Numbered from the stretch's first letter, positions 2,140 to 58,813 are shown. The stretch: 64,000 bases of DNA from an uncultured virus (IMG/VR IMGVR_UViG_3300031087_000513) (IMGVR_UViG_3300031087_000513), one strand, 5' to 3'. Notes: generated by a model from the letters alone, not told the origin. Made by a program: numbers and translations.

Positions 2140-3183
2140 ATGTGCAAATCTGTAGCTGATGGTGGAGAGCGTTGCATCTACGCGGATGCAATCAACAATG
2201 TTCGCAAGAAGACCCGCTACAAGAATCGCAACATCTACGAATCCGCTCGTGAACGGGAAGTGACGCGAGCTGTTCAGAAGTGGAAAGAAGAAAACCCTGA
2301 GCTTGTTCGTGAGCATCTTCCAGAGCACATGCCGTTCCAGGCGACCCCGAACAAGAAAGATGTTCCAGCTCACCTGAAAGCTCTGCTCTCACAGCGTTCC
2401 CGTGTACCTATCACTGGCCTTCCAAAAGAGGAACGTGAAGCGATGACTCGCGCGATGGCAAAAGAACGCGAGGAGATGGAAGAGAACTTAGACAATGACC
2501 ATGTTCGCGCTATCAGTAAGTACACTCAAACGTTCTATGACATTCTCAACCGAAGTCTGCGTCGTTCAGGAGTAGCTGAACATCTCCGTGAAGAACCGTA
2601 TGCGCGTGAAGGTTTTGAAGAGCGTGTCAAGGAAGCTACAAAGAGTATGGATGAAGTGTTTGAACGTACTCCAAACAAAGATGAGCCTCGCAAAGTGTAC
2701 CGTTTCTTCCGCGTTCCAGCAGGAGTAACTCCTCAGGAATTCATTGAAAAGTACTTTGCTGATGGGTCTGCGTTCAAAGACCGTGCGTTTATGTCTACAA
2801 CAGCGGACCCTGAATTCATTATGGCTCATATGTATGACCGTAATAAAGGGAAGCAGAATAAAGGTTATGTTGTGATGGAGATTCTTACAAAAGAAGGCAT
2901 CTCTCTGCAGGACAACGAAGTCTCACGTGGTGGAGATGTACAGTCTCTGGAACATGAAGTCCTCCTTCCACGTAACTCTAAGTTCCGTGTTGTCAATAAC
3001 CGTAAATCCCAACAGTTTGAGTTTGCTTCTGACCGTAAAGACTTGAACGCTCAATACAACCCAAACCACTACTACATGAGTAGTGATGAATCTTACCAGC
3101 GTCATGGTATGTTCAAGAAGGGTGACCGACTCAACTTCCCTGTTATTCAGATGATTGATGAGAAGCTTATTGCTGAATCCTGA
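2140..3183 (+). CDS. ADP-ribosyltransferase (VIP2/C3-like, R-S-E clade) with Cys-rich N-terminus
   Basis: KVYR, FMSTT and EHEVLLPRNSKFRV motifs; preceding AISKYT..YDILNRSLR helix. Confidence 0.88.
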   Translation: MCKSVADGGERCIYADAINNVRKKTRYKNRNIYESAREREVTRAVQKWKEENPELVREHLPEHMPFQATPNKKDVPAHLKALLSQRSRVPITGLPKEEREAMTRAMAKEREEMEENLDNDHVRAISKYTQTFYDILNRSLRRSGVAEHLREEPYAREGFEERVKEATKSMDEVFERTPNKDEPRKVYRFFRVPAGVTPQEFIEKYFADGSAFKDRAFMSTTADPEFIMAHMYDRNKGKQNKGYVVMEILTKEGISLQDNEVSRGGDVQSLEHEVLLPRNSKFRVVNNRKSQQFEFASDRKDLNAQYNPNHYYMSSDESYQRHGMFKKGDRLNFPVIQMIDEKLIAES

Positions 3184-3213
3184 GCTTGATTTTTAGTAAG
3201 GGAACATGGTAGG

Positions 3214-3405
3214 ATGCAGGTTATGAGCATTTTCTGGAAGCTACTTCACTTGCGAAGTGGCGAGCCTAGGAAAGTTCTGGGACGAATCACCACATCAGAA
3301 GGTAAGCTTCCTGTTTCTTTGAGTCATTTGCGACCAAGCCAGGAGTATACCAAGCGTGTTGATGAAGCGTTTAGACCGACACCTTCTCAGAGAATCAAGA
3401 AGTAG
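3214..3405 (+). CDS. small hypothetical protein
   Basis: ORF in a co-oriented run. Confidence 0.45.
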   Translation: MQVMSIFWKLLHLRSGEPRKVLGRITTSEGKLPVSLSHLRPSQEYTKRVDEAFRPTPSQRIKK

Positions 3406-3414
3406 GAAGACATC

Positions 3415-3612
3415 ATGAATAACCGTTTGAGCTGGACCAGCGCGTACCCGAGTACTGCTTTGTTCATCCTCGCTGCCATCACCCTCGTCATGTACATCAG
3501 CACTGGCTTCATCGTTCCAGGTTTGGTTATGTGGAGCGTTGTGACCGCTGCATTCTTTTTTCTTGCAGTGTTCCGTAACATTCAGGTTATTCGCAGCAGA
3601 AAGACCCGTTGA
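3415..3612 (+). CDS. small membrane protein (2 TM)
   Basis: AGGAAG RBS; two hydrophobic segments. Confidence 0.6.
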   Translation: MNNRLSWTSAYPSTALFILAAITLVMYISTGFIVPGLVMWSVVTAAFFFLAVFRNIQVIRSRKTR

Positions 3613-3627
3613 GGTCCACCCTTTATC

Positions 3628-3837
3628 ATGAGTGCGTTTCGTAAGCTTTTCTACCGTAGCCAGCACATGGCTGCTTCCAGTGTCTCCCTGTTTGGGCTAT
3701 TGGGTGTTATCACTTCTATTTTGTTCAATGCAAAAGAAGACAGTCATCTGATGAAGAAGTCCAAGACTGTACTCAACCTTGGACATAAGTGGAATGACCG
3801 AATCTTTGCAAGGAAAAACCGTAAACGAAGGACATAA
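3628..3837 (+). CDS. small membrane protein
   Basis: one hydrophobic segment, ends just before a terminator. Confidence 0.5.
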   Translation: MSAFRKLFYRSQHMAASSVSLFGLLGVITSILFNAKEDSHLMKKSKTVLNLGHKWNDRIFARKNRKRRT

Positions 3838-3843
3838 TACGTA

Positions 3844-3885
3844 AGGAGGGGCTTGTTCGGCACATCAGCTGAACAAGCCCCTCCT
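3844..3885. terminator. bidirectional hairpin terminator
   Basis: aggaggggcttgttc...gaacaagcccctcct between convergent genes. Confidence 0.75.
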
Positions 3886-7914: not shown

Positions 7915-8172
7915 TCAATACTTGATGCGACCCCAAGATTGGTAATCGCCTTCGCTCATATAACCATCGTCGTGATAATTCGCTTTTCGTGCAGCGTCAG
8001 CTCGCTTGTTCGCTTCTTTGTCATACGGATATGCAGGAGTGTTGATTCCACCAGTCCAGTACCCTCCAAGACCATCTGAGTGGCGCTGAGGGGTATGCCC
8101 ACGCTTCTTGATACATGCGGTTCCATCTGTATTCTGTGAACGACAGACAACGAATGGGGCTTCCTCAGTCAT
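7915..8172 (-). CDS. small putative Zn-binding protein
   Basis: C-x9-C-x5-H-x4-H pattern; overlaps the upstream stop. Confidence 0.55.
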   Translation of the reverse strand: MTEEAPFVVCRSQNTDGTACIKKRGHTPQRHSDGLGGYWTGGINTPAYPYDKEANKRADAARKANYHDDGYMSEGDYQSWGRIKY

Positions 8173-8450
8173 ACCTGCACCTGCTTCGTAGCTTGCTTTT
8201 CATGCCAGATTTTGATGAACTCATCGTCATAAATCCAGTGCGGGTCAAGGTTCTGCTCAGTGCGAGCTTTTGCTGCTGCTGCAATCAGAGCCTGAGCAAG
8301 TTCCTCAGCCTCATCAGGTGTGAACTCATCCGCGAACAGTCCTCGAATCTTGAAAGAGACGATAGGGTCTTTCCCTGCTGAAATGGAAGGTGAAGCCTGG
8401 ATCGTGACACTCTGAAAAGATGTCGGAACAATGCCGTTATGGTCAGTCAT
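8169..8450 (-). CDS. hypothetical protein
   Basis: AGGAG RBS; FTPDEAEELAQALIAAA. Confidence 0.6.
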   Translation of the reverse strand: MTDHNGIVPTSFQSVTIQASPSISAGKDPIVSFKIRGLFADEFTPDEAEELAQALIAAAAKARTEQNLDPHWIYDDEFIKIWHEKQATKQVQV

Positions 8451-12525: not shown

Positions 12526-13194
12526 ATGAGCGACCAATCAATTGTAGACGATCATTACCTTCGTCTCAGCATCCACCACAATCACCTGCATGCAGATATT
12601 GAATGCATCCATCATGAGCAGTGTGAAGCAGCTCAGCGTGTTGCGCAGGACAAGGCGGAGCATCAGAATGACCAAGGTGTTGAATACTACGACATTATCT
12701 TGGAATGGTTTGCTGATTCTGATGCGAAAGTGCTTCGCTCAGGAAACATCAGCTTGTTTGAAGACACTCATAACGGGTTCAACTTCGCTTCCTGGCGCTA
12801 CGTCAATGATGAACATCCTCATCCAGAACAGGTGATTGATGAACTCCGTAGTACTCCTCTTGCTGACCATGCGCTTATTGGCTGGGTGAAGAGCAAGACA
12901 GGTCCGTGCTTTGACATTATCTGTACAACCCGCCATGCAGGAGCGTACTGGAATGAAGACGAAGAGGCAGAATCGTCAGATGAACACGATGACGTTCTCT
13001 GCCTTGGCGGGCAACTAACAGAATGGGTTAATGGAGTAGATAACCTATTCAACCTGTACGGAGGCTTGGAAAACTCTGAGTTCCGTGATGATTACATCAA
13101 CATCGTAGCCGAGTATACCACTGATTACTGGGGTGAGTCTGATGGTGATGTTGCTTGGACATACCTCACTGACATGGTAGGAGAATCCGTATGA
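12526..13194 (+). CDS. acidic hypothetical protein, paralog family C
   Basis: CIHHEQCEA, HP..IDELR, HALI, C...H...CLG shared with the next gene. Confidence 0.7.
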   Translation: MSDQSIVDDHYLRLSIHHNHLHADIECIHHEQCEAAQRVAQDKAEHQNDQGVEYYDIILEWFADSDAKVLRSGNISLFEDTHNGFNFASWRYVNDEHPHPEQVIDELRSTPLADHALIGWVKSKTGPCFDIICTTRHAGAYWNEDEEAESSDEHDDVLCLGGQLTEWVNGVDNLFNLYGGLENSEFRDDYINIVAEYTTDYWGESDGDVAWTYLTDMVGESV

Positions 13195-13739
13195 CAACCG
13201 CTGAACAGCATGCATTGAAGATGGTTCTTCAAGACGGAGGAATGCAGGTAGTTATCACCTGTTTAGGACATGATGAATGTGAAGCAGTTCGCAGGATTGA
13301 AGAGGAAGCAGCGACTGCGTTCTACGGGAACAAGTACTCCCTGTTTGAAGAGTACTATTCAGGTGGAGCAGCTCCTATCCAGTCTAACTTGATTGACCTG
13401 AAAACTATTGACAGGAACGAGTTTATTACCTGGCAGTTCACTGCTGAACATCCTACAATTGATGAACTCAAAAACAAGTTCGCTTCCGACATCGACGGTC
13501 ATGTTCTCATTCCGTACATTGAGTACAATGATTTTGTCGCTCCCGAAATCGTATGTGTTGGACCTCATGCAAACAACAATGAGCCATGCTTGGGCGAAAA
13601 CCTCCGCGAGTATATTGGTGAAACAGGGGAAATGTGGAGCGGTTTTGTTGGAACTGAAGGAACGACGCTTCGGAGCGGACCTATCATCATCAAAAACAAT
13701 TCCGACCATGAATGGGTAATGGTCTGGGATTACGCATAA
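13191..13739 (+). CDS. acidic hypothetical protein, paralog family C
   Basis: CLGHDECEA, HPTIDELK, HVLI, C...H...CLG. Confidence 0.7.
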   Translation: MTTAEQHALKMVLQDGGMQVVITCLGHDECEAVRRIEEEAATAFYGNKYSLFEEYYSGGAAPIQSNLIDLKTIDRNEFITWQFTAEHPTIDELKNKFASDIDGHVLIPYIEYNDFVAPEIVCVGPHANNNEPCLGENLREYIGETGEMWSGFVGTEGTTLRSGPIIIKNNSDHEWVMVWDYA

Positions 13740-16044: not shown

Positions 16045-16773
16045 TTACTTTCCTCCGCCTTTGCCAGAGTAGGCGTAGCTACGATAGTAGGCAGCAGTTT
16101 CTTGAGCTTTTTGCTCGTTGCGAGCTTTGCGTTCCTCTGCTTTACGAGCTGCTTCTTTCCGAGCTTCAATCTGAACTTTCGCCAGTTCTTTCACTACCGC
16201 AGTTTTCCCGTTCCGTGCAAGATGCTTGAGAATTACTGGTGGTGTCTTGCTGTTTATAACAACATTCGTCTGTACTCGCTCTGAATCAGAGCGGCCTAAT
16301 TTGTTGAGGTGGCCTGCTTTCAGATTCTTGTTCAACGCAAGGTTTGCAAGGACAGATTCATCTGTATCGTTCAAGTACAGCTCAATCTTTTCCTGGTCCT
16401 TTGTCTTGAACACTTCTGCTGCACGCTGAGCAGGAGTTGCGGAAGTCAAAAATTCATTGATAGCGGCTGTTTCAGATGCTGTACGTGAAGTTTTTGCAGT
16501 AGCGAGACGAGCACGGAGTTCATCCGTGTATTCATTATTTTTGCGTTCAGCAAGCTGAGTGTAACCATCAGAAGTCAGATCGTATTCAGCTTGAGCAGAG
16601 TCAATCTCAGTCCGTACAGCAGTGAACTGTTCGTAAGTTCGTGCATCTTCGAGTTTCTTTTTCGCTGCGTTGAGTTTTTCCTCAGCAGCTTTTGACCAGT
16701 GCTGGCCATGGATACGGCAAGTAGGGCCGGTGTAGCAGTATTTGTTATTACCTACAGCAACGCGTGTTGGCAT
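16045..16773 (-). CDS. protein with Cys-rich leader domain and LRV/HEAT-like repeats
   Basis: CYTGPTCRIHG leader; ESVLANLALN and ERVQTNVVIN..TP..IL..LA repeats; AAGGAG RBS. Confidence 0.75.
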   Translation of the reverse strand: MPTRVAVGNNKYCYTGPTCRIHGQHWSKAAEEKLNAAKKKLEDARTYEQFTAVRTEIDSAQAEYDLTSDGYTQLAERKNNEYTDELRARLATAKTSRTASETAAINEFLTSATPAQRAAEVFKTKDQEKIELYLNDTDESVLANLALNKNLKAGHLNKLGRSDSERVQTNVVINSKTPPVILKHLARNGKTAVVKELAKVQIEARKEAARKAEERKARNEQKAQETAAYYRSYAYSGKGGGK

Positions 16774-20564: not shown

Positions 20565-20579
20565 AACGGAGAAATGCAC

Positions 20580-21041
20580 ATGAGTGAAGTTTACTTGGTT
20601 GAGCGGAACCATTATGGTCAGCATATTAAAGCTGGTGAAGTTTTCACAGACAAAGCAACAGCTCAGTCGTTCGCCGATGCTGCAAATGAGTATCTCAAAA
20701 TTGTGTATCCCACTTACACTGATGCAATTGCAAACCGTGTTGTAGCAATGCCTTCTATCGAAGGTTCAAAGGAGTATGAGATGCTTCTCACCGCACCAGT
20801 TGTACATTCTCCTCAACGCCTCATTGAATCAGGAGTTGAGCCTGACGAGTACTACCTCGCTACCCCTGGATATAATCTCGTTGAAAAGGGGACTCCTGTT
20901 CCTGAACCTGAGGTCCAGAATCCTGCTGATTATAACCCTTCACTCTGGCCGTATTGGAGCGTGACGCTTTATGCTCACACGATGGATGAGCTAAGTGAGC
21001 TTGCCCAGCCATACATCGACAAATTCAACGCTACATTGTAG
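20580..21041 (+). CDS. hypothetical protein, paralog family E
   Basis: GEVFTDKATAQ...WSVTLYA. Confidence 0.7.
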   Translation: MSEVYLVERNHYGQHIKAGEVFTDKATAQSFADAANEYLKIVYPTYTDAIANRVVAMPSIEGSKEYEMLLTAPVVHSPQRLIESGVEPDEYYLATPGYNLVEKGTPVPEPEVQNPADYNPSLWPYWSVTLYAHTMDELSELAQPYIDKFNATL

Positions 21042-21121: not shown

Positions 21122-21367
21122 ATGAAAATTCAGACACTACCAGTCAACGATCAAGTTATGCTCATCCAATCCATGAGAAAAGAATTAGTGCGCACCGTTG
21201 ATGAAGCGGGAAGCATTGACGTAAACATTGCATGTCGTCAAGTAGCCCGGACATTACAGGTCCCGCGAGCGACTGTTCGTTACGGATTGACTGAGGCGAC
21301 AGTAGACAAACATATTCAGGTTGATCGCAAAACTTCCACACTCCATTCAATCAAAGGAAAACGATAA
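21122..21367 (+). CDS. small basic protein, possible winged HTH
   Basis: VARTLQVPRATVRYGL; AAGGA RBS. Confidence 0.5.
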   Translation: MKIQTLPVNDQVMLIQSMRKELVRTVDEAGSIDVNIACRQVARTLQVPRATVRYGLTEATVDKHIQVDRKTSTLHSIKGKR

Positions 21368-21852
21368 TGCCAATTGACGAAGAAATTTTAGAACAGCCAG
21401 TATATGAACTCGCTCGCTTTGATGGAGGAGAATATACTCACCAATACGGTGAATACTTTACTGACAAAGATCAGGCTGAGCAGGTAGCAAAACTTCTCAA
21501 TGAAGAAGACCAATACAATCATGTGTCTTACTCTGATGGTTGGACTGTTCTGCAAATTGAAACAATATCTCCGAATGCCGCCTTTTTTCTTGTTTATAAT
21601 GTAACCCTTGTCAACAAGGCTTGGTATAAAGAGCCAATTGAGGGTAAATATGAAGCAGGAGAATACAAATCAAAAGTTGTCCAAAGCTTCTTGCCTTTTG
21701 ATGAGGCATACCAGTATGATGAAGGTGTATGGAAAGACCGATGGGAAGTAACTCTTTGGGCAAAAACTCCTGAGGAGCTTCAAATCCGCATTGAGGAAGT
21801 ACTTGCCCGCTTGAATGAAACCAATGACCCAGGTGCCCTTCGTATTATCTGA
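21367..21852 (+). CDS. hypothetical protein, paralog family E
   Basis: QYGEYFTDKDQAEQVA...WEVTLWA. Confidence 0.72.
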   Translation: MPIDEEILEQPVYELARFDGGEYTHQYGEYFTDKDQAEQVAKLLNEEDQYNHVSYSDGWTVLQIETISPNAAFFLVYNVTLVNKAWYKEPIEGKYEAGEYKSKVVQSFLPFDEAYQYDEGVWKDRWEVTLWAKTPEELQIRIEEVLARLNETNDPGALRII

Positions 21853-23008: not shown

Positions 23009-23242
23009 ATCTTTTTCAGTATAAGGGAACTCCGTCTTTGATTGCCAGAAATAGCTTTTAGCGCTTACCCACCTATAGAAAGATCACCAGCAGGGATTTG
23101 CCTATCATGTCACTGGTTGACGAAGCTTGAGACTTCTGGTAATATTGAAGTCAGGAAAAGATGAGAAACCAATGATTAAGGTGAACTTCGTATCATCTCA
23201 TTAGACACCTCCTTAACGCTACAAGAAATGAAGGCCGCAATC

Positions 23243-45261: not shown

Positions 45262-45443
45262 TGGGGGATAGTCCTTTCATGGTACTTATATGACACACAA
45301 TACCATGTATACTCATAAAGTCAACCTTTTTATCTGCTCAAACAACGCAAACATGTCCTTTTCGGGTAGATGTTCCTAAGAATGTGCATTATTGGAACAA
45401 CTATGATAGAGTAAGCATCATTATTATTCGTGAGGGAAAAAGA

Positions 45444-46064
45444 GTGGAAAGAAAAATTACTGCAACACTACTGATCGTAGTTGTTGCATTCAGCGCCTTG
45501 ATTGGAAGTGTCCAGTTAGTGAATATGTTCACCAACTGGCGAGTAGCTCCCGTGACTACCAGTGCTATGGAACCAGCGGTCCCTCAGGGTGCCCTCATTG
45601 TCTCTAAGCTCACACCTGAGAAAGACATCAAACGAGGTGACATCGTGACCATCGGTGTTGGTACTCAGAATGATAACCTCATCGGACGTGTACTTGACAT
45701 CACTACTGACGACAAACAGTATTACAACATCGCCTTAAAAAGTGACCAGAACCCACTCCCAGATAACTTCCCGTATAAAACCCGTGACGTAACCTACAAA
45801 GAGCAGTTTGATATTCCATTTCTCGGATTCGCTGTTGTCGCTCTCACCTCACCTGTCGGTTGGATTATCACAACCCTTCTTCTTCTCGGTTTAGGTTTAG
45901 TATATCTGTACCGTTTCCATGCACCTGTATCCCAGGACCTGCGTGTTGTTCATAGCACTGAGAAAGCACGTAAGAAAGCTGTTCAGCGCATTGCAGAGCG
46001 TGGAGACCATAACGGAGTAGAGAAGATTAACGCCTTGTTCGTAGAAAGTGAAGTAAGCAACTAA
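45444..46064 (+). CDS. SipW-like (S26) signal peptidase homologue, apparently inactive
   Basis: TM, V.TSAMEPAVPQG.L, DIKRGDIVT, IGRV, LKSDQN..PD, IPFLG, TM. Confidence 0.7.
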   Translation: MERKITATLLIVVVAFSALIGSVQLVNMFTNWRVAPVTTSAMEPAVPQGALIVSKLTPEKDIKRGDIVTIGVGTQNDNLIGRVLDITTDDKQYYNIALKSDQNPLPDNFPYKTRDVTYKEQFDIPFLGFAVVALTSPVGWIITTLLLLGLGLVYLYRFHAPVSQDLRVVHSTEKARKKAVQRIAERGDHNGVEKINALFVESEVSN

Positions 46065-48703
46065 TGACGACACAACCGAAACCCTTAGCCTCAACAACCA
46101 AGAAACTTCTTGTCGCCGCAGGTGTGCTTGTGACAGGTGCTGCACTGTTCCTTTCTCAGAACACCACTACTGTGCAAGCATCTGATGCTGGTAACTTCGT
46201 CACCGCGAAAGATGTTTCAGCAGGGAACACGTTCGCTACTCTCCTCACTACCAGTGGTGACGTGTACAGCCGTGGATGGAACAGTCAAGGTCAGCTTGGT
46301 ATTGAATCAGGCCAGAAAGTCAATGTTTCAAACTGGGAGAAAGTCCCGTTGAAAGAAAAGATTTCCAGCATTGACTCACCGTATGACCACACTGTCGCTT
46401 TGAGTACATCAGGACACATCTTCACATGGGGTCCGAATGATGTTGGCCAGGAAGGTAACGGTTCCACGAATCCTACTTACACCCCTAACCAGGTAACTGC
46501 TGCTGTTCGTTTCCAGCAGATCACCGCTGGAAACAACTTCACCTTAGCCTTAGATAGAGATGGAAAACTTTGGTCTTGGGGTGACAACAGTAAAGGCCAG
46601 CTTGGTGATGGAACAACTACCGCTCACACCACTCCTGACGTAGCAAAAACGGATGAAACGTTTGCATCCATCTATGCAGGTAAAGACTTCGCTATTGCTC
46701 GCACCAACACAGGTGGGTTATACTCTTGGGGTGACAACAGTAAAGGCCAGCTTGGTGATGGAACAACCAACTCACGTAACACCCCTGCGGCTACCGCTGG
46801 TGGTCAGACATGGACCAGTGTTACTACGAACATCCAGTCTCAGTCCGTTCTTGCTATCTCCTCCGCTGGTTACCTGTACTCATGGGGCTCTAACGCGCAC
46901 GGTGAGTTAGGTGTTGGTGTTGATTGGCGAGCACAGCAGGCAGCTGAAAACCAGCGTGTTAAGGATGAGATTGCTCGCATCAAAGCTCAGGATGATGCTC
47001 GTCGTCAGGGTCTCATCAATCAGTGCGTCAATGATGCAGTAGCGGCAGCGGAACAGAAAGCACAGGAGGAAGCTCAGAAAGAGTTTGACCAGCAGCAGAA
47101 AGAGGAGAAAGCTAGGCAGAAGGCTTCACCAAGCCCAAGCCCAACACCAACCGCTTCACCGTCCCCGTCTGGCTCACCCACTCCTTCTGGAACACCGTCC
47201 CCGTCTGAGACTCCTGAACCGACTCCAACTCCCAGTGCAAGCCCCACCCCTAAGCCTGTTAACCCACAGGATTATGTAGCGGATTGTACAACCAAAGTTG
47301 ACGCAACGTTCAAGTACACTGACACCTCCAACATCAAGCCAAAGACCATTACTGAGCCTGCATTGCGCGGTGACAGCAGTGACCCTATCCAGGTGACCGC
47401 TGCTGTACAGTTCAGCAAAGCTGCTTTGGGTTCACAAAACGGTTACGCTGTTGACGTTCTCAACCGTCTATACTCATGGGGTTCAGACGCAAACGGCCAA
47501 ACAGGAATCAACGTTGACGATTCCAAAGCTCACACTCAGGTTCCTGTTCAGATTCTGACTCAGGTAAGTTCTGTCGCTGCTGGTGACAAGTTTGGTGTGG
47601 CAACATCCACAGCAGGTGGCGTGTATGTATGGGGAGCTAACGCTCATGGCGAAACACTTGCTGACCCGAAAACTGAAAAGCAGGTTCTCACTCCTACTCA
47701 GCGTACAGACGGTTACAATACTGTCATCGCAGGTCCAAACACTGTCTACGCTTTCACAGGTAACACAGTACGGGCCTGGGGTGACAACAGTAAAGGCCAG
47801 CTTGGTGCGAACAATAACAGCGCTCAGGTGTTCACCCCTGCTGAACTGACTACCCGTTTGCAAAATCTCGCTCCGTTCAACACAGGAGTCGTGGGTCTTG
47901 ACCTCTCTAACAAGCTTGTCAGTTGGGGTCAGAACCAGGAAGGCGAGTTCGGAACAGGAACTACCAGCAAAGAGACAGTGCGTTCCGTAACGGCCAAAGT
48001 TATTGATACATTCAAAACCACCAAAGCAGGTTACCTATACTCCTTGGCTGTGGATAACACAGGTCAGGTATGGGGTTGGGGCTACGGTGACTCAGGTCTT
48101 CTCGGAGCAAACAACCCAGGAAATAACCTGTATCCTGTTGCTGTCCCAGTTGCATCCAACGTCACGCATATCGCAGCAGGTAAGCTTGTCGCAATTGCAT
48201 CCAATGACAAAAAAGTTGTCATCTGGGGGAGTGGCTTGAATGGTAAAACTCAGCAGTATGACCTCTCCAACATCAACCAGGTTGCAGCAGGAGACAAGCA
48301 TGTTCTTGCTTTGACCAAAGATGGAGACCTTTGGAACTGGGGCGATGAAACAACTGGTGTGAAGAACCAAAAAGAGCAGCGCACTCTTGTAGAAGCTGAC
48401 ACATCCCACACCTACTCATATGTCGCTGCTGGCGCAGGAACAACATTCGGTATCACCACTGAGGGTAAACTCATCGGTTGGGGAGATAACAAAAACAATG
48501 TCTTGCAGTTCACGGACGGGAATGACACCACAAATGTCAACCTTGACTTGAAAACCATTCACTTAGCAGGCACCTATGCTGCTGGTGTGGATAAGAACGG
48601 TGTCGCATGGGCTTGGGGTTTCAACCCATACGGAGTGTTCGGACTCCCATCAGAAAGTAAAGTACCAACTGCTCTGCCATTGACCACCTCGGAAGGAAAC
48701 TAA
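46064..48703 (+). CDS. secreted RCC1/BLIP-II repeat protein with coiled-coil and Pro/Ser/Thr insert
   Basis: many WG.N..GQLG repeats; signal peptide; PSPSPTPT linker. Confidence 0.9.
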   Translation: MTTQPKPLASTTKKLLVAAGVLVTGAALFLSQNTTTVQASDAGNFVTAKDVSAGNTFATLLTTSGDVYSRGWNSQGQLGIESGQKVNVSNWEKVPLKEKISSIDSPYDHTVALSTSGHIFTWGPNDVGQEGNGSTNPTYTPNQVTAAVRFQQITAGNNFTLALDRDGKLWSWGDNSKGQLGDGTTTAHTTPDVAKTDETFASIYAGKDFAIARTNTGGLYSWGDNSKGQLGDGTTNSRNTPAATAGGQTWTSVTTNIQSQSVLAISSAGYLYSWGSNAHGELGVGVDWRAQQAAENQRVKDEIARIKAQDDARRQGLINQCVNDAVAAAEQKAQEEAQKEFDQQQKEEKARQKASPSPSPTPTASPSPSGSPTPSGTPSPSETPEPTPTPSASPTPKPVNPQDYVADCTTKVDATFKYTDTSNIKPKTITEPALRGDSSDPIQVTAAVQFSKAALGSQNGYAVDVLNRLYSWGSDANGQTGINVDDSKAHTQVPVQILTQVSSVAAGDKFGVATSTAGGVYVWGANAHGETLADPKTEKQVLTPTQRTDGYNTVIAGPNTVYAFTGNTVRAWGDNSKGQLGANNNSAQVFTPAELTTRLQNLAPFNTGVVGLDLSNKLVSWGQNQEGEFGTGTTSKETVRSVTAKVIDTFKTTKAGYLYSLAVDNTGQVWGWGYGDSGLLGANNPGNNLYPVAVPVASNVTHIAAGKLVAIASNDKKVVIWGSGLNGKTQQYDLSNINQVAAGDKHVLALTKDGDLWNWGDETTGVKNQKEQRTLVEADTSHTYSYVAAGAGTTFGITTEGKLIGWGDNKNNVLQFTDGNDTTNVNLDLKTIHLAGTYAAGVDKNGVAWAWGFNPYGVFGLPSESKVPTALPLTTSEGN
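46574..47807 (+). repeat. intragenic direct repeats in the RCC1 gene
   Basis: identical 44-mer at 46574 and 46724; 31-nt core again at 47777. Confidence 0.85.
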
Positions 48704-48706
48704 CCC

Positions 48707-49711
48707 ATGCGCGCAGCACAGAGAAGAAGAGCTGTCTTCGTTGTCATCTTAGGTTTCGTAGCAGTAGCTATGGGCGGGCTTATCCTGTTCGTATCATTCA
48801 CAGCAGACCTCATCCCAAACAACCGATTCAACGCAGACAACTACGTTCAATATGGTTTACAGCAGGTAAAAATCACTGCGAATGATGAGAACACTGCAAC
48901 AGGTCTACCTGCGAAAACCATCAGATTCAAGTTCGGCGACAGCACCATTTCAGGAAGAAACGCCTTAGATAGTGGTGGGTTGGAGATTCTTGGGGAAAAC
49001 ATTGAGAAAGAGATTGACAAGTCCCCAGCTATCTACAACATTGAAGGCTCTGGGACCAAAGAATCAAACTTCAACTTCACGTTCCACAGTGTTTCCCCAT
49101 CTGACTATAAGGACCGCACATACCTAAATGCATACAATGCCTTCACTCGTCTTGGTGATAGCACAAACATTGGTGCACTCACCTACGATTCCACAGTGGA
49201 TGAGCAGACAGGTCGCCGCATTGTCAACATTTCAGAAACAGGCAACAACATCACTGGGAGTGACGTTCTTGGGAACAACTGGCAGAACTTACTGAGCGTT
49301 CTGCCAACTGACTCGAACACCACATACAATGTCACGTTCAATACAGGTGAAAATGTAACCGTTCATGGAACGTTCTCCACGAAAGCAGAGCGCGAAGCTC
49401 TCATGAACGTGGATAGCGCAGTATGGAAAAATGCCGCAGGATATGTAGGTATTTCAGGATACACTTCATCTTCTGTGTACAAGATTCAACGTGCAGATGT
49501 ATACCTTTCGCCTGTAAAGGGTAGCAATCAGACAACCCTTGCTTTGACTATTCCAAAAGGCACTGACCGAGGAACATTCCTGAGTACCTTCCAAAGCAAA
49601 GCGTCACAGGACCCTGACCTTGACTACAACTCAGCAATGACTACCACGTTGACTGTTGACGGAGATAAAACGCCGTTCAACATCATCTACCCGTCCAACC
49701 GCGACTGGTGA
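48707..49711 (+). CDS. membrane-anchored extracellular protein
   Basis: N-terminal TM, Asn/Thr-rich; AAGGA RBS. Confidence 0.7.
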   Translation: MRAAQRRRAVFVVILGFVAVAMGGLILFVSFTADLIPNNRFNADNYVQYGLQQVKITANDENTATGLPAKTIRFKFGDSTISGRNALDSGGLEILGENIEKEIDKSPAIYNIEGSGTKESNFNFTFHSVSPSDYKDRTYLNAYNAFTRLGDSTNIGALTYDSTVDEQTGRRIVNISETGNNITGSDVLGNNWQNLLSVLPTDSNTTYNVTFNTGENVTVHGTFSTKAEREALMNVDSAVWKNAAGYVGISGYTSSSVYKIQRADVYLSPVKGSNQTTLALTIPKGTDRGTFLSTFQSKASQDPDLDYNSAMTTTLTVDGDKTPFNIIYPSNRDW

Positions 49712-52770: not shown

Positions 52771-52811
52771 CACTCCCGATAATTTCCCTCATACAACCCT
52801 GTAGGAGAAAA

Positions 52812-53270
52812 ATGGTCGCGTTCTTTATCATCGTCAGTATTGCTCTCATTGGAGCTGCTGTCTACGATGCTCGCCATCGTATTCCTGAGGAAGAGTATTG
52901 GGATGAATCAGATACTCATTACTCATTGTGGGATCGCATTCAAGCGAAGCGTTATCCACAGAATGCAACAAGTGTTCTCATCCGTGAGCAAAACCAGCGT
53001 CAACGTGTTCGTCAAGAAGCTCTCATCGGACGCAACCGCCGACGTGATGAGAAACGTAAAGCAGAGTACTCACTCCTGAGAATAGAGCGTCAGGGCTTCA
53101 AGCTTGAGGCTGCGGAGCAGATGCAGAAAAAACGAGAAGACGCGAAAAGAGCATATAAGTTGGCTGTTCGGGAAGCAAAAGAAGAGCGTTTCTGGGTTCA
53201 TGATGCCGCGAAAGAGCGAGAGCAAACTCAACGAGAAAAAGTTGACGAACAACTAAAAACTTTGCTATAA
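52812..53270 (+). CDS. N-terminally anchored coiled-coil protein
   Basis: AGGAG RBS, TM, R/E-rich. Confidence 0.65.
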   Translation: MVAFFIIVSIALIGAAVYDARHRIPEEEYWDESDTHYSLWDRIQAKRYPQNATSVLIREQNQRQRVRQEALIGRNRRRDEKRKAEYSLLRIERQGFKLEAAEQMQKKREDAKRAYKLAVREAKEERFWVHDAAKEREQTQREKVDEQLKTLL

Positions 53271-53307
53271 CGCACCTGTTTGAGGGACAAGGGGTTAGGA
53301 ACTTCAT

Positions 53308-54069
53308 ATGAAAGACTGCCAAGCCAAAAATCCCGAATTTTGCCGGTACCACGGGGCATACCATTTCCCTGCGGAAAAGTTGAGCTATGTTGAGCATGTG
53401 CGAGAATCAGAAAAGCTCAAAATGTTCCTCACCATTGATGAACGTGATGCTGTTCAAGGGTATTTAGAACAGGAATACATGGAACTCAATGCACACTTGC
53501 ATGGAGCTGAGATTAACCCTTCACCTGAGACGCTCAAACGCATCAAAGACTTAGATGCAGCATTAGATAAGTATGAACCGCTGCGACCTCAGAACGTCAT
53601 CACCACGTACCGTGCAACTAAATGCTACCAGTCTTTTACTGATAGAACCGAAGCTCAAAAGTGGATTCGTGAAAACTTCCCTGTGAAAAGCAAGATCAAG
53701 CTTGCTGGGTTCACATCAACAACGCCGAACCCTTCTGCCTTGTTTGATTTCCTACCAGAGTCTCATGCTGACCTGTCTCCAACAATTGGTGGGCCACTTT
53801 TCCCCACGAAGAAAGATTGGGATGAGTACCTTCAAGAAGAACCAGACAGAGGTTTAGGGAACTTAGTCTTCGTTTTGAAAACTCGAGCTGGAGTTCCAGT
53901 TTCTGGTTATGGTCAAGCATTCAGTCAAAAAGAACAAGAGTACCTGTTCCCACGAGACAAAGAGTTTACGGTTGACAGTATTCTTCCATACCGTAAGATA
54001 CTCAACCCTGATGACTCTTCCCGTCGTCAGTCTGCTCATGCCACAGTAATCACATTAAAAGAATCATAA
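53308..54069 (+). CDS. ADP-ribosyltransferase (VIP2/C3-like) with CxxxxxxCRxHG leader
   Basis: TYRA, GFTSTT, EQEYLFPRDKEF. Confidence 0.85.
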   Translation: MKDCQAKNPEFCRYHGAYHFPAEKLSYVEHVRESEKLKMFLTIDERDAVQGYLEQEYMELNAHLHGAEINPSPETLKRIKDLDAALDKYEPLRPQNVITTYRATKCYQSFTDRTEAQKWIRENFPVKSKIKLAGFTSTTPNPSALFDFLPESHADLSPTIGGPLFPTKKDWDEYLQEEPDRGLGNLVFVLKTRAGVPVSGYGQAFSQKEQEYLFPRDKEFTVDSILPYRKILNPDDSSRRQSAHATVITLKES

Positions 54070-54082
54070 GCAAAGGAGCTTC

Positions 54083-54577
54083 ATGATGAGTAAAGACTGC
54101 CAAGCTAAGGACCCGCAGAAGTGCCGTATCCATGGTATCAATGGTCAGCTTCGTCAATTACAAGTACAAGCAAACGACGCTATTGCCGCCAAGGATGAAA
54201 ACAAGTATTTGGAGTCAAGACAACTCATGGAAACGCTTTCTGATGATCCAGGTGTGGATGTATTGGTAGATCATCTTCGTAGTGATAACAAAGGCGTATC
54301 TGCTGTAGCTGAGGAAATGTTAGAAGAACGTGGTTACACTGAATCACAAATCTTGGTGAAAAAGCACTTCATTGAAGAGGACGCAGAAGTCATCAGATGG
54401 CCTGCTACTAGTTGTTATATGGACATCCAGAAACGGTACAGTGTGACATTCCGCAAACAATTCACTCGTGAAGCGTTTAGCCAGTTAGAAGAGTCACAGA
54501 ATACAGAGAAGTTTGTTGATGAACTCCTCAAAGAAGCGAAGAAACTCAAGCAGCGCCACAACATGCAAATTGTGTAA
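54083..54577 (+). CDS. protein with CxxxxxxCRxHG leader
   Basis: KDCQAKDPQKCRIHG nearly identical to the upstream ART N-terminus; AAGGAG RBS. Confidence 0.75.
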   Translation: MMSKDCQAKDPQKCRIHGINGQLRQLQVQANDAIAAKDENKYLESRQLMETLSDDPGVDVLVDHLRSDNKGVSAVAEEMLEERGYTESQILVKKHFIEEDAEVIRWPATSCYMDIQKRYSVTFRKQFTREAFSQLEESQNTEKFVDELLKEAKKLKQRHNMQIV

Positions 54578-54585
54578 CTTATCAC

Positions 54586-54975
54586 TTAGCTGTAGGTAGC
54601 GTACAGCACAGGACCAAGTTTAGCGCCAAACAACTCAGCAAGCTCTTCTAATGTCTTTTGGGTTTCAGGGGAGCTCGCCTTGGTCGCAAGCATGACTGGC
54701 TCCAGGTCCTCTTTTTCTACATCAATCTTAGATGGCTTATCTAAAACGATCAGGAAGTCTTTTGAATAGTCATAGCTTGGGCTATCAACGTACACATTAG
54801 GCAGAAGTTCATATCCACCAAGATAGTCTTTACCGTCGTTCTCCGCGCCATCATAAGACCAGCTCCAGGGCTTGCCCGAAGTTGTTTCAAAATACTCTTT
54901 GAGTGTAGTAAAAACTTCGTCAGTATAATCTACTCTAAAACCATATCCGGCTGTGCCGCTGTAATATAAACCCAT
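54586..54975 (-). CDS. hypothetical protein
   Basis: 129-aa ORF. Confidence 0.6.
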   Translation of the reverse strand: MGLYYSGTAGYGFRVDYTDEVFTTLKEYFETTSGKPWSWSYDGAENDGKDYLGGYELLPNVYVDSPSYDYSKDFLIVLDKPSKIDVEKEDLEPVMLATKASSPETQKTLEELAELFGAKLGPVLYATYS

Positions 54976-55065
54976 AAGCAGATTCTATCACATAGACTTG
55001 ATTTTCTAAGGTTTGAATGGTATGATTGAGTGTTATTTACCGATGAGAGAGTAAGGATTAACACC

Positions 55066-55545
55066 ATGACTGGCAAGCAGGTTATTGTTGCTGAGGGCAA
55101 GTACGGCAACGACTTCTTCGATGCTTCTACTCCTGAGCTGGAAGCTCGTGCGTACAGCATCATCCTCGCTGAGCGCAAGGAGATTGGCTACTTCTACCGT
55201 GAGTACGAGGGCGAAATCACACTGACGGCTGAGCAGCAGGAGATTCTGGACATGACTGATGAGCAGATTGAAGCTCTTCCGTCTTCTCTTCGTGATAACA
55301 CGAAGGAGCGTAAGTCTAAGATTGCTCGTGGGCTTGCCGCAAAGAAGCGTCGTAAGGAGCAGGAGGACCAGTGGTTCAACGCTCTTGACAAGGTTCTCGC
55401 TGTGCCTGCTGAGGAGAGCTACAAGGTGACCACTGAGGGTGTTCCTGGGTTTGAGCATGGCCGTGTTCGTCCGCTTGCAGAGGTTTTGGTTGAGTCCCGA
55501 ACCGATGGGGAGTACGAAAACGTTTACACGGAGAGGCTGCGGTAA
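55066..55545 (+). CDS. hypothetical protein
   Basis: AAGGA RBS before MTGKQ. Confidence 0.65.
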   Translation: MTGKQVIVAEGKYGNDFFDASTPELEARAYSIILAERKEIGYFYREYEGEITLTAEQQEILDMTDEQIEALPSSLRDNTKERKSKIARGLAAKKRRKEQEDQWFNALDKVLAVPAEESYKVTTEGVPGFEHGRVRPLAEVLVESRTDGEYENVYTERLR

Positions 55546-55550
55546 CCACG

Positions 55551-56327
55551 ATGGGAATTCGCATCAGCAAAAGTCTGGGTTGGGGCATTGTCCTGCCTTA
55601 CAACAATGACTTCCATGAACGAGTTGATGAGGCTTTAGAGCAGGACTATGATGATTATGTTCAGTTCCTGAAAGACAAGTACAAAGATGAGTCCGCTGAG
55701 CAGGCTCTTGCGCAGCTTGGTATGCCCCTGTACAACATGGACCGCCTTTCTTTATTCAATGACACCCTCAAGCCGAAGCATCGTTACAAGGATGTTTTTG
55801 ACGCGTACGATGTTGTCACATTGGAAACTGAGTACGTAAACGAGAATAAGGACATGGTTCTCGTGGTTTCACCCTTCTCTGTCGCTTCCGCATGGAAGCG
55901 CTATGATGACTCCATTGATTGGGCAGAAGCTTTTCTGAATATGGAGGATGAGGGGCGTACTGATATCGTCAAGAATACTATCCGCTATCTTCCACATAAT
56001 CAGTATCCATACGATGGCCAGTATATGCACGAGGTTACGGGCAAACCCGTTTCACAGGATGCTCGTATGGTTATGCGCTACGCAAAAGCTGTGCTGGAAT
56101 CCATTGCTGAAAAGGGTCAGTTGGACCATGCAGATACTATCGAGTTCCTTCGCCGTACAGATGTGAAAATTCAGCGTGAAGGTTTCGCTTCATACGAAGA
56201 CCTTAAAGCTCACATGGTTCCTTTTGTTCCTCAGGATGTTCGTGATATCTGCGAATGGTTGGAAATCTTTGAAGATAAAAGAGCAGTTCTTGAATTACGC
56301 CCTATGTTACTCACACACTGGGGATAA
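55551..56327 (+). CDS. hypothetical protein
   Basis: 258-aa ORF. Confidence 0.7.
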   Translation: MGIRISKSLGWGIVLPYNNDFHERVDEALEQDYDDYVQFLKDKYKDESAEQALAQLGMPLYNMDRLSLFNDTLKPKHRYKDVFDAYDVVTLETEYVNENKDMVLVVSPFSVASAWKRYDDSIDWAEAFLNMEDEGRTDIVKNTIRYLPHNQYPYDGQYMHEVTGKPVSQDARMVMRYAKAVLESIAEKGQLDHADTIEFLRRTDVKIQREGFASYEDLKAHMVPFVPQDVRDICEWLEIFEDKRAVLELRPMLLTHWG

Positions 56328-56330
56328 ACT

Positions 56331-56861
56331 ATGAATGCCTCATACAGTTTTACTCCCTTTACTCACAAAGAAGACATTAGTATTCTTCCTGCTTTTGATG
56401 ACCCGTTTTATCAGACAGCGAAGTACGAGTCATTCCTGATGACAGTAAGCCGCATCCTGCATGATAATCAGGTACAGCGGTCAGCTTTTGTTCGCACAGT
56501 AGGCATGTGGAAAGGCCAGCATGAACCTTCCGTAACAGTTGATGTCTACGGTGACAAAGGGGACATAGAGATTGCTGGTCGCATCATCCAGGAGCACTTC
56601 AATCAGGATGCTGTCCGCATTACATACGAAAACGGTGTGCACACTCATCAGCAGTATGTGTTTCGTCAGTCTGTATACGTTCCGTCAACAGTAATTGAAC
56701 GGTTAGTTTCAGTAGGAATTTCAGGAGCACAGCTCACGCCGACCACTATCCGGATTGACATCCCAGGTGAGCTGGATGAGGATACTATGCAGAGACTGAG
56801 TGACTGGTTTGGGAAACCGAAACAGATTCCTTGTGAAGTGGTTCGCATCAAACGGGCATAA
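56331..56861 (+). CDS. hypothetical protein, possible SAM lyase (T3 SAMase)-like domain
   Basis: GMWKGQHEPSVTV...HFNQDAV. Confidence 0.4.
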   Translation: MNASYSFTPFTHKEDISILPAFDDPFYQTAKYESFLMTVSRILHDNQVQRSAFVRTVGMWKGQHEPSVTVDVYGDKGDIEIAGRIIQEHFNQDAVRITYENGVHTHQQYVFRQSVYVPSTVIERLVSVGISGAQLTPTTIRIDIPGELDEDTMQRLSDWFGKPKQIPCEVVRIKRA

Positions 56862-56900
56862 TGAAAGCGTCAGACCTATTATCAGGTCTGACGCTTTCAT
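56861..56900. terminator. bidirectional hairpin terminator
   Basis: atgaaagcgtcagacct...aggtctgacgctttcat. Confidence 0.75.
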
Positions 56901-56906
56901 ATTTTC

Positions 56907-57293
56907 TTACTTGTGGTAGTACAACCAGTCAAGTTCTACCTTGACAATTGCATACCCTGCATTCTTCATGGAGTAATGGCTGGGATGTGTAACAGCCCAA
57001 CCAAAATTGACAGTACCGTCAATCTCATCCTGACGCACATTCTGACGGAACAGAGTCTTCACATCAGGATCACTCAGTTGATCCCATACAAGATTTCCGA
57101 TGGTTTGAACATTGATTGTCTTTGGTAACTTATTAGACCCCTCAATAGCATGCCAGAATAGGATGATGCCGTGGTCTGTTAATTGGTAGGCTGCAACTGA
57201 ATACCCTGAAATCTCTAATGCAAGTTCTAGAGTTTTGAAGAGATGCTCTTTATTACTTCCGTTGATGGAAAATTTCTGCTCATCAGTAAACAT
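56907..57293 (-). CDS. hypothetical protein
   Basis: coupled to the upstream gene. Confidence 0.6.
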   Translation of the reverse strand: MFTDEQKFSINGSNKEHLFKTLELALEISGYSVAAYQLTDHGIILFWHAIEGSNKLPKTINVQTIGNLVWDQLSDPDVKTLFRQNVRQDEIDGTVNFGWAVTHPSHYSMKNAGYAIVKVELDWLYYHK

Positions 57294-57759
57294 TGTTTAC
57301 CTTGCTTTCTGTATAGTAGTTACTCACCTGTTCAGTCAAAGCTTTTAAGCTTTCAACCACTGCAACTTCGGGGCGAGCTAACCGAAGTTGTGTTACGACA
57401 TCTAACTTACGTTGGTAGTTCGGGTGAGTACCAACAAACAACTGTGTATCTTTCTGATGACTAAAACGACCCAATTCAAACAAAGTGATAGGGCAGAGAG
57501 TCTCCTCAGGGAACCAGAATAGGACAGCGGAAGATTTGTTGAGAGCATCAAACTCCCAAGCGATCTGAACTTCCGCTACCCCTGGAGCAGTTGAGTACAC
57601 TGCACGGCGTGGATTATACATAGGAACAGAAACACCAGCGGCTTCTAAGTCTCGTGTGATAACATTCTGCCAATCAGGGCAACCAGAAATTCCACCAGCG
57701 ATGAATAACCCATCCAGGCGAGGGGCTGTAACAGGCTCAGGGGCGGTAATGACAGTCAT
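57283..57759 (-). CDS. nucleoside 2-deoxyribosyltransferase-like domain protein
   Basis: FIAGGI...DWQ, NPRR, QIAWE, FWFP, PITLFELG. Confidence 0.85.
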   Translation of the reverse strand: MTVITAPEPVTAPRLDGLFIAGGISGCPDWQNVITRDLEAAGVSVPMYNPRRAVYSTAPGVAEVQIAWEFDALNKSSAVLFWFPEETLCPITLFELGRFSHQKDTQLFVGTHPNYQRKLDVVTQLRLARPEVAVVESLKALTEQVSNYYTESKVNNVY

Positions 57760-57814
57760 AGGAGCAGTTTACCACCAAGAAGATGAACAGCTGCATATAT
57801 GGCCTTAGAACGCC

Positions 57815-58813
57815 TTACAGCTCTTCCAGTTGAATAATCTGTACTGGACCTTCACCACTATACCCGTGAACAACAGCTTGCAGATTGTTATTCACAACAC
57901 GATATTTGCCATCACGAGGAAGTAAGAACTCTTTCTCGTTCGTACCTTGATTAGCTGTTGCTGAGATGGAAGCCCCGCGGCGTGTTTTAATTTCAAAACG
58001 AGCGATGAGGTTTCGGCTGTTCGTTCTGTCAGGACCAGGAATGTTCTTCTGATCTAAACTCGTAGACATGAAGAAACCTGGTTCATATACACTCCCGACA
58101 GGGAACTTCTTTTGAAGCTCCTCAGAAGAGATATGCGCGAACGATCCATCCTCATCGTAGAAGAAATGACGGCGGTAAACGACAACTTCTTTGTTGTTCG
58201 ATGCTTTAGCTAACGCAGAATCTAAATACTTTACTGTCTCTTGGACGCTTTCCATCGAAGCTCTCGGCGTGAATGAAGCACTGGAAAGAACCCCATTCAC
58301 ATCAGCGTAGCCGCCCTGTGAGTAATGGTTCATTGCTTCAATCTCTTCATCACTTAAATGTTCAGCCCAGTCCAAAGACTCCTGCAACATAACAGCCATA
58401 TCCTCGCCGTTTTCATCAATGCGGTTTAGCTGGTGACCTTCTTGCGTGAATTCGCACTGCTGATATGCGTAAGAACCAATGACTGTTCTCTCATGAGTCT
58501 CTTCTACTTGTTGTTTCTTACTCAACTGATCCAGAGCATGCTGGCGGTCTGAACGAGCTTTTTCTAAGTTCATCTCCGCCCATGAGCCGCCGCCTTCAAT
58601 TACTTCACGTTCCAACGCGCGGATACCGGCAGGAGTCATATTGAACTCCTGATCTGCGTCATCTCTGAGATGCTTCAACCGGTCAAACTCGTTATAGTCC
58701 ATCTCATCATCGTTTCGATGGTTCTCATAGTAGACACGGAACTCATGTTTAGCCTTCGCTAAACGCTTTGCAGCATCTGCTGAACAACGGGGACCAGGTT
58801 TCGGGTAGCACAT
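57815..58813 (-). CDS. ADP-ribosyltransferase (VIP2/C3-like) with MCYPKPGPRC leader domain
   Basis: VVYRR, FMSTS, EKEFLLPRDGKYRV. Confidence 0.88.
   Translation of the reverse strand: MCYPKPGPRCSADAAKRLAKAKHEFRVYYENHRNDDEMDYNEFDRLKHLRDDADQEFNMTPAGIRALEREVIEGGGSWAEMNLEKARSDRQHALDQLSKKQQVEETHERTVIGSYAYQQCEFTQEGHQLNRIDENGEDMAVMLQESLDWAEHLSDEEIEAMNHYSQGGYADVNGVLSSASFTPRASMESVQETVKYLDSALAKASNNKEVVVYRRHFFYDEDGSFAHISSEELQKKFPVGSVYEPGFFMSTSLDQKNIPGPDRTNSRNLIARFEIKTRRGASISATANQGTNEKEFLLPRDGKYRVVNNNLQAVVHGYSGEGPVQIIQLEEL

Follow-up and report, generated by a model that had tools for sequence, protein, structure and literature searches.

The internal proteins of phage T4 carry an N-terminal capsid targeting sequence, which has no cysteine pair and is removed by the prohead protease. 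The ADP-ribosyltransferase (ART) Alt of T4 is packaged (PMC5512222). In MuF proteins (Mu gp30 / SPP1 gp7, PF04233), a conserved N-terminus is followed by variable C-terminal toxins, ARTs among them, and the protein is a head component whose gene lies beside the portal gene (PMC5576092 and PMC5512222). PMC5512222 (Iyer et al. 2017) also describes polyvalent proteins of phages and conjugative elements, which join 2-15 domains per chain, and reports fusions of PBECR, NUDIX, GNAT, and ART domains to MuF or portal proteins, with packaging and injection as their predicted fate. The stretch analyzed here, 64,000 nucleotides (nt) of the uncultured virus IMGVR_UViG_3300031087_000513 (hereafter, the window), encodes five proteins that open with a pair of closely spaced cysteines, referred to as the leader: P0001, whose gene opens at 2140, P0002 (16773), P0003 (53308), P0004 (54083), and P0005 (58813).

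The two-cysteine motif marks dozens of other enzymes of related giant replicons and also sits on portal proteins, which suggests a tag for virion-carried proteins, and we put the probability that the leader is a cargo tag for virion-packaged, injected effectors at roughly 45%. Under this proposal, two Cys separated by seven (or five, or nine) residues at a Pro/Gly turn, usually followed by x-x-His, would mark unrelated enzymes as virus-particle cargo; the head would take up the tagged protein at or near the portal, and the protein would leave with the DNA and act in the newly infected cell. The leader itself would be the cause of loading, and the 0.7-0.9 Mb replicon to which the window belongs would make virions. 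The cargo encoded in the window would then consist of three arginine-type (R-S-ExE) ARTs and two proteins of unknown activity.

As proposed, the leader would resemble the T4 capsid targeting sequence in being a short address at the N-terminus of unrelated proteins, an ART among them, that are loaded and injected; the two have no sequence likeness. No conserved cleavage-like motif followed the leader in alignments A3 and A4. In T4, untagged paralogues stay behind (Alt versus ModA/ModB); the leaderless NUDIX proteins encoded next to leader genes in the giant replicons would agree with sorting of this kind. The MuF domain exceeds 100 residues, in contrast to 11-13 residues for the leader, with or without a helical domain recognized by no library; PF04233 matched none of P0001-P0005 at E ≤ 1 and none of the 96 window open reading frames (ORFs), although close ART homologues of P0005 are themselves MuF fusions. 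Polyvalent proteins (PMC5512222) resemble the leader proteins in their payloads (ART, NUDIX, GNAT, PBECR nuclease, LPD3), their portal fusions, and their predicted packaging and injection, but their domains share a chain, whereas the leader genes are separate and small, each with its own leader, and each window protein has at most one recognized payload domain (Pfam). Were the leader a loading tag, many small genes with their own tags would form a third delivery route beside MuF fusions and polyvalent polyproteins; injected effectors, including proteins of unknown function, could be read from the genome, which is otherwise possible only by virion proteomics; and a very short handle would be at hand for putting foreign proteins into the capsids of laboratory phage systems.

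Leader Types in the Window and Chance Expectation

All five ORFs listed in the first-pass annotation are open and contain the quoted Cys pair, and its statement that they lack a Sec signal also held: the top Kyte-Doolittle mean over 15 residues does not exceed 0.21 in the first 45 residues, and none of the five has a hydrophobic N-terminus. The single shared leader that it had proposed stood as far as the Cys pair is concerned, but by sequence the leaders are three or four related subtypes rather than one motif, P0001 and P0005 being without R-x-H-G. P0003 and P0004 carry the main type, C-x-A-K-[DN]-P-x-x-C-R-x-H-G; P0002 carries type (ii), C-x5-C-R-x-H-G or C-x-x-G-P-x-C-R-x-H-G; P0005 carries type a, M-C-Y-P-K-P-G-P-R-C-S-x-H-A; and P0001 an M-C-x5-G-G-x-R-C type. 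The spacing C-x7-C-x2-H is common to the main type and type a.

The window ORF set comprised 96 ORFs of at least 60 amino acids (aa). Enrichment at N-termini was evident, with a C-x5-9-C pair within the first 30 residues in 12 of the 96 ORFs compared with 4 of 498 internal 30-residue windows; about six of these 12 are credible leader genes, the remainder being doubtful ORFs or other motifs. The six-frame translation of the window contains three instances of the strict pattern C-x4-10-C-[RK]-x-H-G, each of them 6-15 codons past a stop, whereas 30 base shuffles gave 0.1 on average and at most 1. A chance origin of the window motif copies is thereby excluded.

A Short N-Terminal Module Combined with Many Payloads

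The leader is a small, portable, conserved, N-terminal module that is combined with many payloads. Three collections were searched with a degenerate DNA pattern of the main type; the pattern fixes A, K, and [DN]-P, so that their conservation among the matches is partly built in, and the counts are raw. In viral contigs, six places matched, of which two look real, and in a one-genome-per-species collection seven matched and six look real. Metagenome contigs gave 75 loci, corresponding to 61 distinct main-type ORFs. Four loci (L014, L048, L052, L084) look like chance matches in short GC-rich ORFs. In 46 of the 61 ORFs, the motif lies at most 25 residues from the first start codon, mostly at residue 4-8, and is followed by at least 100 residues; among the other 15, two are short and 13 have an internal motif or are open at the 5′ end.

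The post-motif parts of these 46 ORFs formed 35 payload clusters (BLASTP), and the motif recurs in near-identical and sister replicons, in agreement with the recurrence before varied payloads that the first-pass annotation had anticipated. That annotation had read the leaders as a metal-binding address tag for virion loading or export, and this reading gains partial support. Pfam analysis covered 57 of the 59 motif ORFs of at least 60 aa, two from a near-identical record being excluded, and assigned ART (7), NUDIX (3), GNAT (1), RNase_T (1), RlaP (1), and portal (5) families, with two weak RNA-ligase-like and DnaJ-finger matches, one other weak match, and no family in 36. Most main-type loci are on contigs of 0.72-0.88 Mb close to the window. 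In the near-identical record (878,612 bp), P0003 is unchanged (100% identity) and P0004 shows a single difference; seven strict motif matches (two ARTs, one GNAT, and four unknowns) are present in this record, compared with six, six, and one in the sister contigs of 788,683, 725,246, and 791,393 bp, respectively. These giant replicons also encode leaderless NUDIX proteins adjoining leader genes.

A profile of 49 motif segments was compared with 5.8 billion proteins, the best 8,000 candidates by common words being scored, and gave at least 135 matches at E ≤ 10, of which 118 proteins were retrieved. Ninety-one of these have at least 500 aa, nearly all belonging to one acidic family with an internal motif on contigs of up to about 276 kb, and 25 of the 27 shorter ones have the motif at residues 4-15. 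In this jumbo-phage protein (about 800-1,850 aa), the core C-R-A-x-N-P-[LM]-x-C-R-[FY]-H-G is present in nearly all 91 long proteins while the rest varies, and a further Cys stands seven residues upstream of the motif. One member is a 1,178-aa acidic protein encoded at 13729-17265 of L090, on a 251,769-bp viral contig with inverted terminal repeats (G001; L004/L082/L090). An ADP-ribosylglycohydrolase gene is located about 6 kb downstream, and the genes around this motif protein showed no structural annotation.

The constancy of the motif also bears on whether it is a structural cap only, that is, a metal- or disulfide-stabilized turn spread by recombination within one replicon lineage, with no sorting role. 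Most copies do come from one clade of giant replicons, and AlphaFold2 gives an ordered loop, with a predicted local distance difference test (pLDDT) value of 83 at residues 1-10 of P0005 and of 66-77 at residues 1-30 of P0003. However, unrelated phage lineages and two portal families also have the motif, which in the jumbo-phage protein is the only island that stays constant, and its catalytic-level conservation, together with the complementary distribution of MuF and portal carriers described below, exceeds what a cap would need, which makes this explanation improbable.

The motif is undescribed as far as the libraries and literature searched are concerned (Pfam, NCBIfam, PHROG, PDB sequences, and motif-string paper searches). 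No Pfam, NCBIfam, or PHROG family or PDB chain searched covers the leader, the 49-segment profile did not find the motif among solved chains (three weak matches to ribosomal eL33, E ≥ 0.7), and the motif-string literature searches returned unrelated results only. The words "cysteine" and "knuckle" do not occur in the accessible part of PMC5512222.

Association of the Motif with Portal Proteins

The evidence that ties the motif to virions is indirect: some copies are part of portal proteins, and others are encoded by the gene next to the portal gene on its downstream side. In the metagenome ORFs L025 (with LPD3), L035, and L039, one polypeptide joins Portal_Mu, an acidic linker, the motif, and a payload in this order, and Phage_portal_3 heads the same arrangement in L038 and L072 (also L001). 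The contig L086 of a metagenome-assembled genome (MAG) encodes Portal_Mu, then the motif, then a PBECR1 nuclease, a layout shared by P0095. In prophages of three other Kiritimatiellota MAGs, the gene immediately following that of the portal specifies a 137-aa protein whose motif is located at residue 5; L094 has the gene order terminase, portal, and motif gene, with 4-bp overlaps at both junctions. Portal and terminase matches among the sampled loci were confined to the portal-fusion loci.

A search with P0005 (phmmer, 1.84 billion representatives) gave 260 matches at E ≤ 1e-3, and leader types were read in the best 150. Among the 51 of these that lack a Cys pair, 27 are longer than 450 aa, none of which has an internal C-x5-9-C-x2-H. 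In the 24 of these 27 that were scanned, Phage_Mu_F precedes the ART in four and Phage_portal in two, the remaining ones being mostly multi-ART giants. The comparison of MuF- or portal-borne leaderless ARTs with leader-bearing ARTs indicates that the same enzyme comes either on a head-associated carrier or with a small leader. The list of leader payloads matches the domains fused to MuF or portal proteins in Iyer et al. 2017 (PMC5512222).

The motif could instead act after delivery or in the producing cell, through binding of nucleic acid or a host target or through redox or metal sensing, its presence in virions being incidental; such a knuckle would bring different enzymes to one substrate (RNA, RNA polymerase, or ribosome) or switch them on. 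We regard this as unlikely, although several features agree with it: the motif is basic, with K and R around the Cys pair, it is kept on portal fusions where a docking tag is redundant, the payloads include nucleotide- or RNA-related proteins (NUDIX, RNase_T, RlaP nucleotidyltransferase, an RNA-ligase-like protein, and PBECR1 nuclease), and in P0005 the helical domain that follows the leader is packed against the ART. However, the MuF- and portal-borne ART homologues do without the knuckle, which would be unexpected if it were needed in the target cell, the extreme N-terminal position in 46 of 61 ORFs is not needed by a binding module, and no nucleic-acid-binding family was matched in Pfam, NCBIfam, or PDB sequences.

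Several observations weigh against a cargo tag. In the 64-kb window, in 18 loci (~5 kb each) of four giant contigs, and in another 27 loci, the search for capsid, portal, terminase, and tail families gave nothing, and the leader genes of the window sit among replication, nucleotide-metabolism, and methylase genes, outside any structural module. None of them has a portal or head gene beside it, portal adjacency being seen only for the main-type genes of the three Kiritimatiellota prophages. Portal-ART fusions without the knuckle exist, and since fusions to a portal need no docking tag, its retention on such proteins suggests that it may act after delivery. In the main type, only C, C, and H are conserved as possible ligands, with no fourth, and the His at position 13 is not invariant among 70 aligned type-a homologues and is Asp in P0005. 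The N-terminal domain of P0005 could, judging from its predicted structure, be regulatory or substrate-binding instead of an address. Finally, the clade of giant replicons was found neither in the IMG/VR copy searched nor in INPHARED, so that its viral nature is unproven.

Conservation, Kinship, and a Possible Metal Site

In P0003, C4, A6, C12, H15, and G16 are invariant across seven orthologues (46-64% identity), and the motif of P0004 is kept in all three orthologues (79-99% identity). Some N-terminal Cys pair is present in 99 of the best 150 P0005 homologues: the type-a start M-C-Y-x-x-P-G-P-x-C in 77, an M-C-x5-G-G-x-x-C start in 11 and its shorter G-G-R-R-C form in 4 more, type (ii) in 4 (P0218, P0224, P0236, P0247), and another pair in 3. 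Positions M1, C2, P6, G7, P8, and C10 are invariant in the 70 aligned type-a sequences, as are T60, E293, and E295.

A hidden Markov model (HMM) of the type-a N-domain, made from the N-terminal 110 aa of 73 type-a ARTs and run on 287 sequences, matched P0002 at residues 13-100 (E 2.5e-9) and the main-type proteins L070, P0131, L075, and L027 (E about 1e-6), so that different knuckles head one shared helical domain of ~90 residues with a conserved Y-D-x-T-P-A-G turn. P0002 is also related by BLASTP to the main-motif proteins L070 (E 4e-8) and L024. The shared domain thus ties P0002 and some main-type proteins to type a, whereas the P0001 leader is not tied in this way; its type rests on likeness by eye, as the HMM gave no match to P0001 in the same set, the spacing, G-G, and R-C being shared with M-C-R-x-K-E-x-G-G-R-R-C-P-x-H of P0223, P0232, P0264, P0270, and P0271. 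P0001 and P0005 are paralogues (28% identity over 265 aa). Types a, b, and (ii) are all present on contigs the longest of which has 885,359 bp.

Zinc knuckles and the intermolecular "zinc clasp" are short Cys/His clusters at a turn, in which three ligands can be completed by a partner. The leader resembles them in this respect and, given its C, C, H pattern, may bind a metal, possibly completing the site with a ligand of its partner, but no four-ligand pattern recurs across the leaders, C, C, and H being invariant in the main type and C2 and C10, but not His13, in type a, and no zinc-finger family or solved chain was matched. In the jumbo-phage protein, the extra upstream Cys would complete four ligands, and in the M-C types the free N-terminus could, as a thought only, serve as the fourth. 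A broader form of the cargo-tag proposal, which we hold to be rather doubtful, is that the 13-residue Cys2-His peptide is a universal phage-cargo address that docks at the portals of unrelated phages, perhaps via a shared metal site, and defines a dozen or more injected host-takeover enzymes in the 0.7-0.9 Mb clade.

ADP-Ribosyltransferases of the Window

As the first-pass annotation had it, all three clear ARTs of the window bear a leader. PF03496 (cut-off 23.4 bits) matched P0001 with 40.9 bits (E 1.9e-10), P0003 with 46.9 (E 2.6e-12), and P0005 with 75.9 (E 3.4e-21), and Pfam found no ART in the remaining 93 of the 96 window ORFs; P0001 also matches PF01129 (E 2.4e-05). The R, S-T-[ST], E-x-E catalytic set of the R-S-E clade is present in all three: R188, S219-T-T, and E271-H-E273 in P0001; R102, S137, E209, and E211 in P0003, all invariant in its orthologues; and, in P0005, R214, which is at least 90% conserved in the 70 homologues, together with the invariant E293 and E295.

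The AlphaFold2 model of P0005 (pLDDT 93.9, predicted template modeling score 0.91) shows an ordered N-terminal loop, after which the helical domain packs with the ART; that of P0003 has a mean pLDDT of 83.4. In Foldseek, the top match of P0005 was VIP2 (1qs1_A, E 1.8e-10), followed by C3 exoenzymes, and VIP2, Certhrax, and C3 matched at E 1e-10 to 1e-8 across about 200 residues, which corresponds to a C3/VIP2-like fold. P0005 shares this fold, and the window enzymes share the catalytic R, S-T-S, and E-x-E (PF03496), with the C3 / VIP2 / iota-type R-S-E ARTs, but those toxins are secreted via signal peptides or binary partners, whereas the window enzymes have no signal peptide and carry a Cys leader. 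Matches of P0005 to plasmids and of P0232 to phages were confined to the ART domain, and the ESM Atlas gave generic ART clusters only. A 151-nt metatranscriptome contig lies inside P0003 without differences; as carry-over of DNA is not excluded, it was not counted as evidence of transcription. The sequence TTAG[AG][AT]A precedes the ATG of several leader genes by about 13 nt and also precedes non-leader genes, and counts of TANNNT and Shine-Dalgarno positions gave no leader-specific signal.

In the sister giant contigs (L037, L043, L058, L073, L081), the leader-bearing NUDIX is nearest to ADP-ribose pyrophosphatase / NadM-Nudix models, and a Macro-domain gene, like the leaderless NUDIX genes, adjoins leader genes, which together give these contigs a theme of NAD and ADP-ribose enzymes.

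The Replicon and Its Gene Content

The window has a GC content near 46%, Pfam assigns a family to about a quarter of its ORFs, and no tRNA or Rfam match was obtained. Its Pfam families include Thg1, thymidine kinase, adenylate kinase, AAA ATPase, RNase H, methylase, MsrB, an RCC1-repeat protein, and a PcfJ-like protein, to which the flanks in sister contigs add ThyA, DHFR, GyrB, helicase, Macro, NUDIX, PTH2, methylases, DNA polymerase, and a DnaB-like helicase. The best matches of the Thg1 and AAA proteins of the window are in phages, and the replicon probably is a huge phage. Contigs of the clade measure 725,246, 782,330, 788,683, 791,393, 828,331, 858,429, 878,612, 883,042, and 885,359 bp, with phage-like gene content and about three quarters of ORFs without a family. 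To our knowledge, the largest phage genome is of about 735 kb, which the 0.72-0.89 Mb contigs of the clade would exceed if they are viral. Neither P0003 relatives nor the type-a leader pattern turned up in the IMG/VR copy searched, INPHARED gave nothing for P0005, an 8.5-kb stretch of window DNA, or a 50-aa main-type N-terminus, and literature searches on huge replicons found nothing on this clade. Independently of the role of the leader, this unclassified 0.7-0.9 Mb clade, rich in NAD/ADP-ribose enzymes, deserves its own description.

The gene content is also where a different kind of transport has to be considered, in which the leader and helical domain would be an export or transfer signal for a non-virion machine, either conjugative or type VII-like, the latter having substrates that combine an N-terminal helical domain with a polymorphic toxin C-terminus. 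The phage nature of the giant replicon is unproven, the window has a PcfJ-like gene, flanking genes have RskA_C and DUF4190, which are mainly actinobacterial families, and the helical-bundle N-domain with its Y-D-x-T-P-A-G turn recalls WXG/LXG-type carriers. We nevertheless find such a signal improbable, and export, which the first-pass annotation had also named, gained no direct support: no LXG, WXG, or secretion-system family appeared in any scan, none matching P0001-P0005 at E ≤ 1 (Pfam); the only physical links found join the motif to phage portals, and the bacteria concerned have an outer membrane; NUDIX and GNAT are atypical of interbacterial toxins; and no partner resembling an immunity protein was noted.

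The leader genes and motifs of the window are listed in Table 1. P0004 starts 14 nt past the end of P0003. Pfam gave no support to the "LRV-like repeats" previously read in P0002, and neither P0002 nor P0004 matched a family in Pfam, PHROG, or NCBIfam; the same three libraries matched nothing in the 85-aa candidate sixth leader gene, whose adjoining gene (8169-8450, minus strand) has a weak DUF6907 match.

Table 1. Coordinates of leader genes and leader motifs in the window.
Feature	Position	Strand	Description
P0001, ADP-ribosyltransferase, 347 aa	2140..3183	+	M-C-x5-G-G-x-R-C leader; ART domain at residues 109-287
P0001 leader C-K-S-V-A-D-G-G-E-R-C, residues 2-12	2143..2175	+	His of relatives is Ala in P0001
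Candidate sixth leader gene, 85 aa	7915..8172	-	From the N-terminal Cys-pair scan
C-R-S-Q-N-T-D-G-T-A-C, residues 10-20 of the 7915..8172 ORF	8113-8145	-	Likeness to C-x9-C type by eye only
P0002, 242 aa	16045..16773	-	C-x5-C-R-x-H-G leader, shared helical N-domain, then C-terminal part without assigned family
P0002 leader C-Y-T-G-P-T-C-R-I-H-G, residues 13-23	16705..16737	-	C-x-x-G-P-x-C-R-x-H-G type
P0003, ADP-ribosyltransferase, 253 aa	53308..54069	+	Main-type leader immediately preceding ART domain
P0003 leader C-Q-A-K-N-P-E-F-C-R-Y-H-G, residues 4-16	53317..53355	+	Main type
P0004, 164 aa	54083..54577	+	Main-type leader and payload matching no known family
P0004 leader C-Q-A-K-D-P-Q-K-C-R-I-H-G, residues 6-18	54098..54136	+	Main type
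P0005, ADP-ribosyltransferase, 332 aa	57815..58813	-	Type-a leader, four-helix N-domain (residues 11-100), C3/VIP2-like ART
P0005 leader C-Y-P-K-P-G-P-R-C-S-A-D, residues 2-13	58775..58810	-	Type a; usual His13 is Asp

The region 52800-58900 was represented by at least half of the sampled words in 12 further runs from 11 studies, labelled phyllosphere, leaf litter, plant metagenome, or with two organism labels; in one organism-labelled run, a 37-kb contig spans the whole region with 107 differences in 6,101 bases. Other small gene groups were observed in the window. The adjacent overlapping genes 12526-13194 and 13191-13739 (both plus strand) have in common C-x2-H-x2-C-E-A near residues 24-35, a different motif, and match no family. 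Four paralogues of 155-166 aa, also without a family (20574-21041, 21367-21852, 21897-22376, and 23228-23728, plus strand), share G-E-x-F-x-D-K-x-x-A-E-x-x-A near residue 30-45, and the neighbor pairs at 19078/19512 (plus strand) and 5576/6211 (minus strand) have like N-termini and no family. The RCC1-repeat protein encoded at 45384-49711 (plus strand) has 879 aa and a hydrophobic segment at its N-terminus, is flanked by two further proteins with membrane-like segments, and matches PHROG families annotated as "regulator of chromosome condensation".

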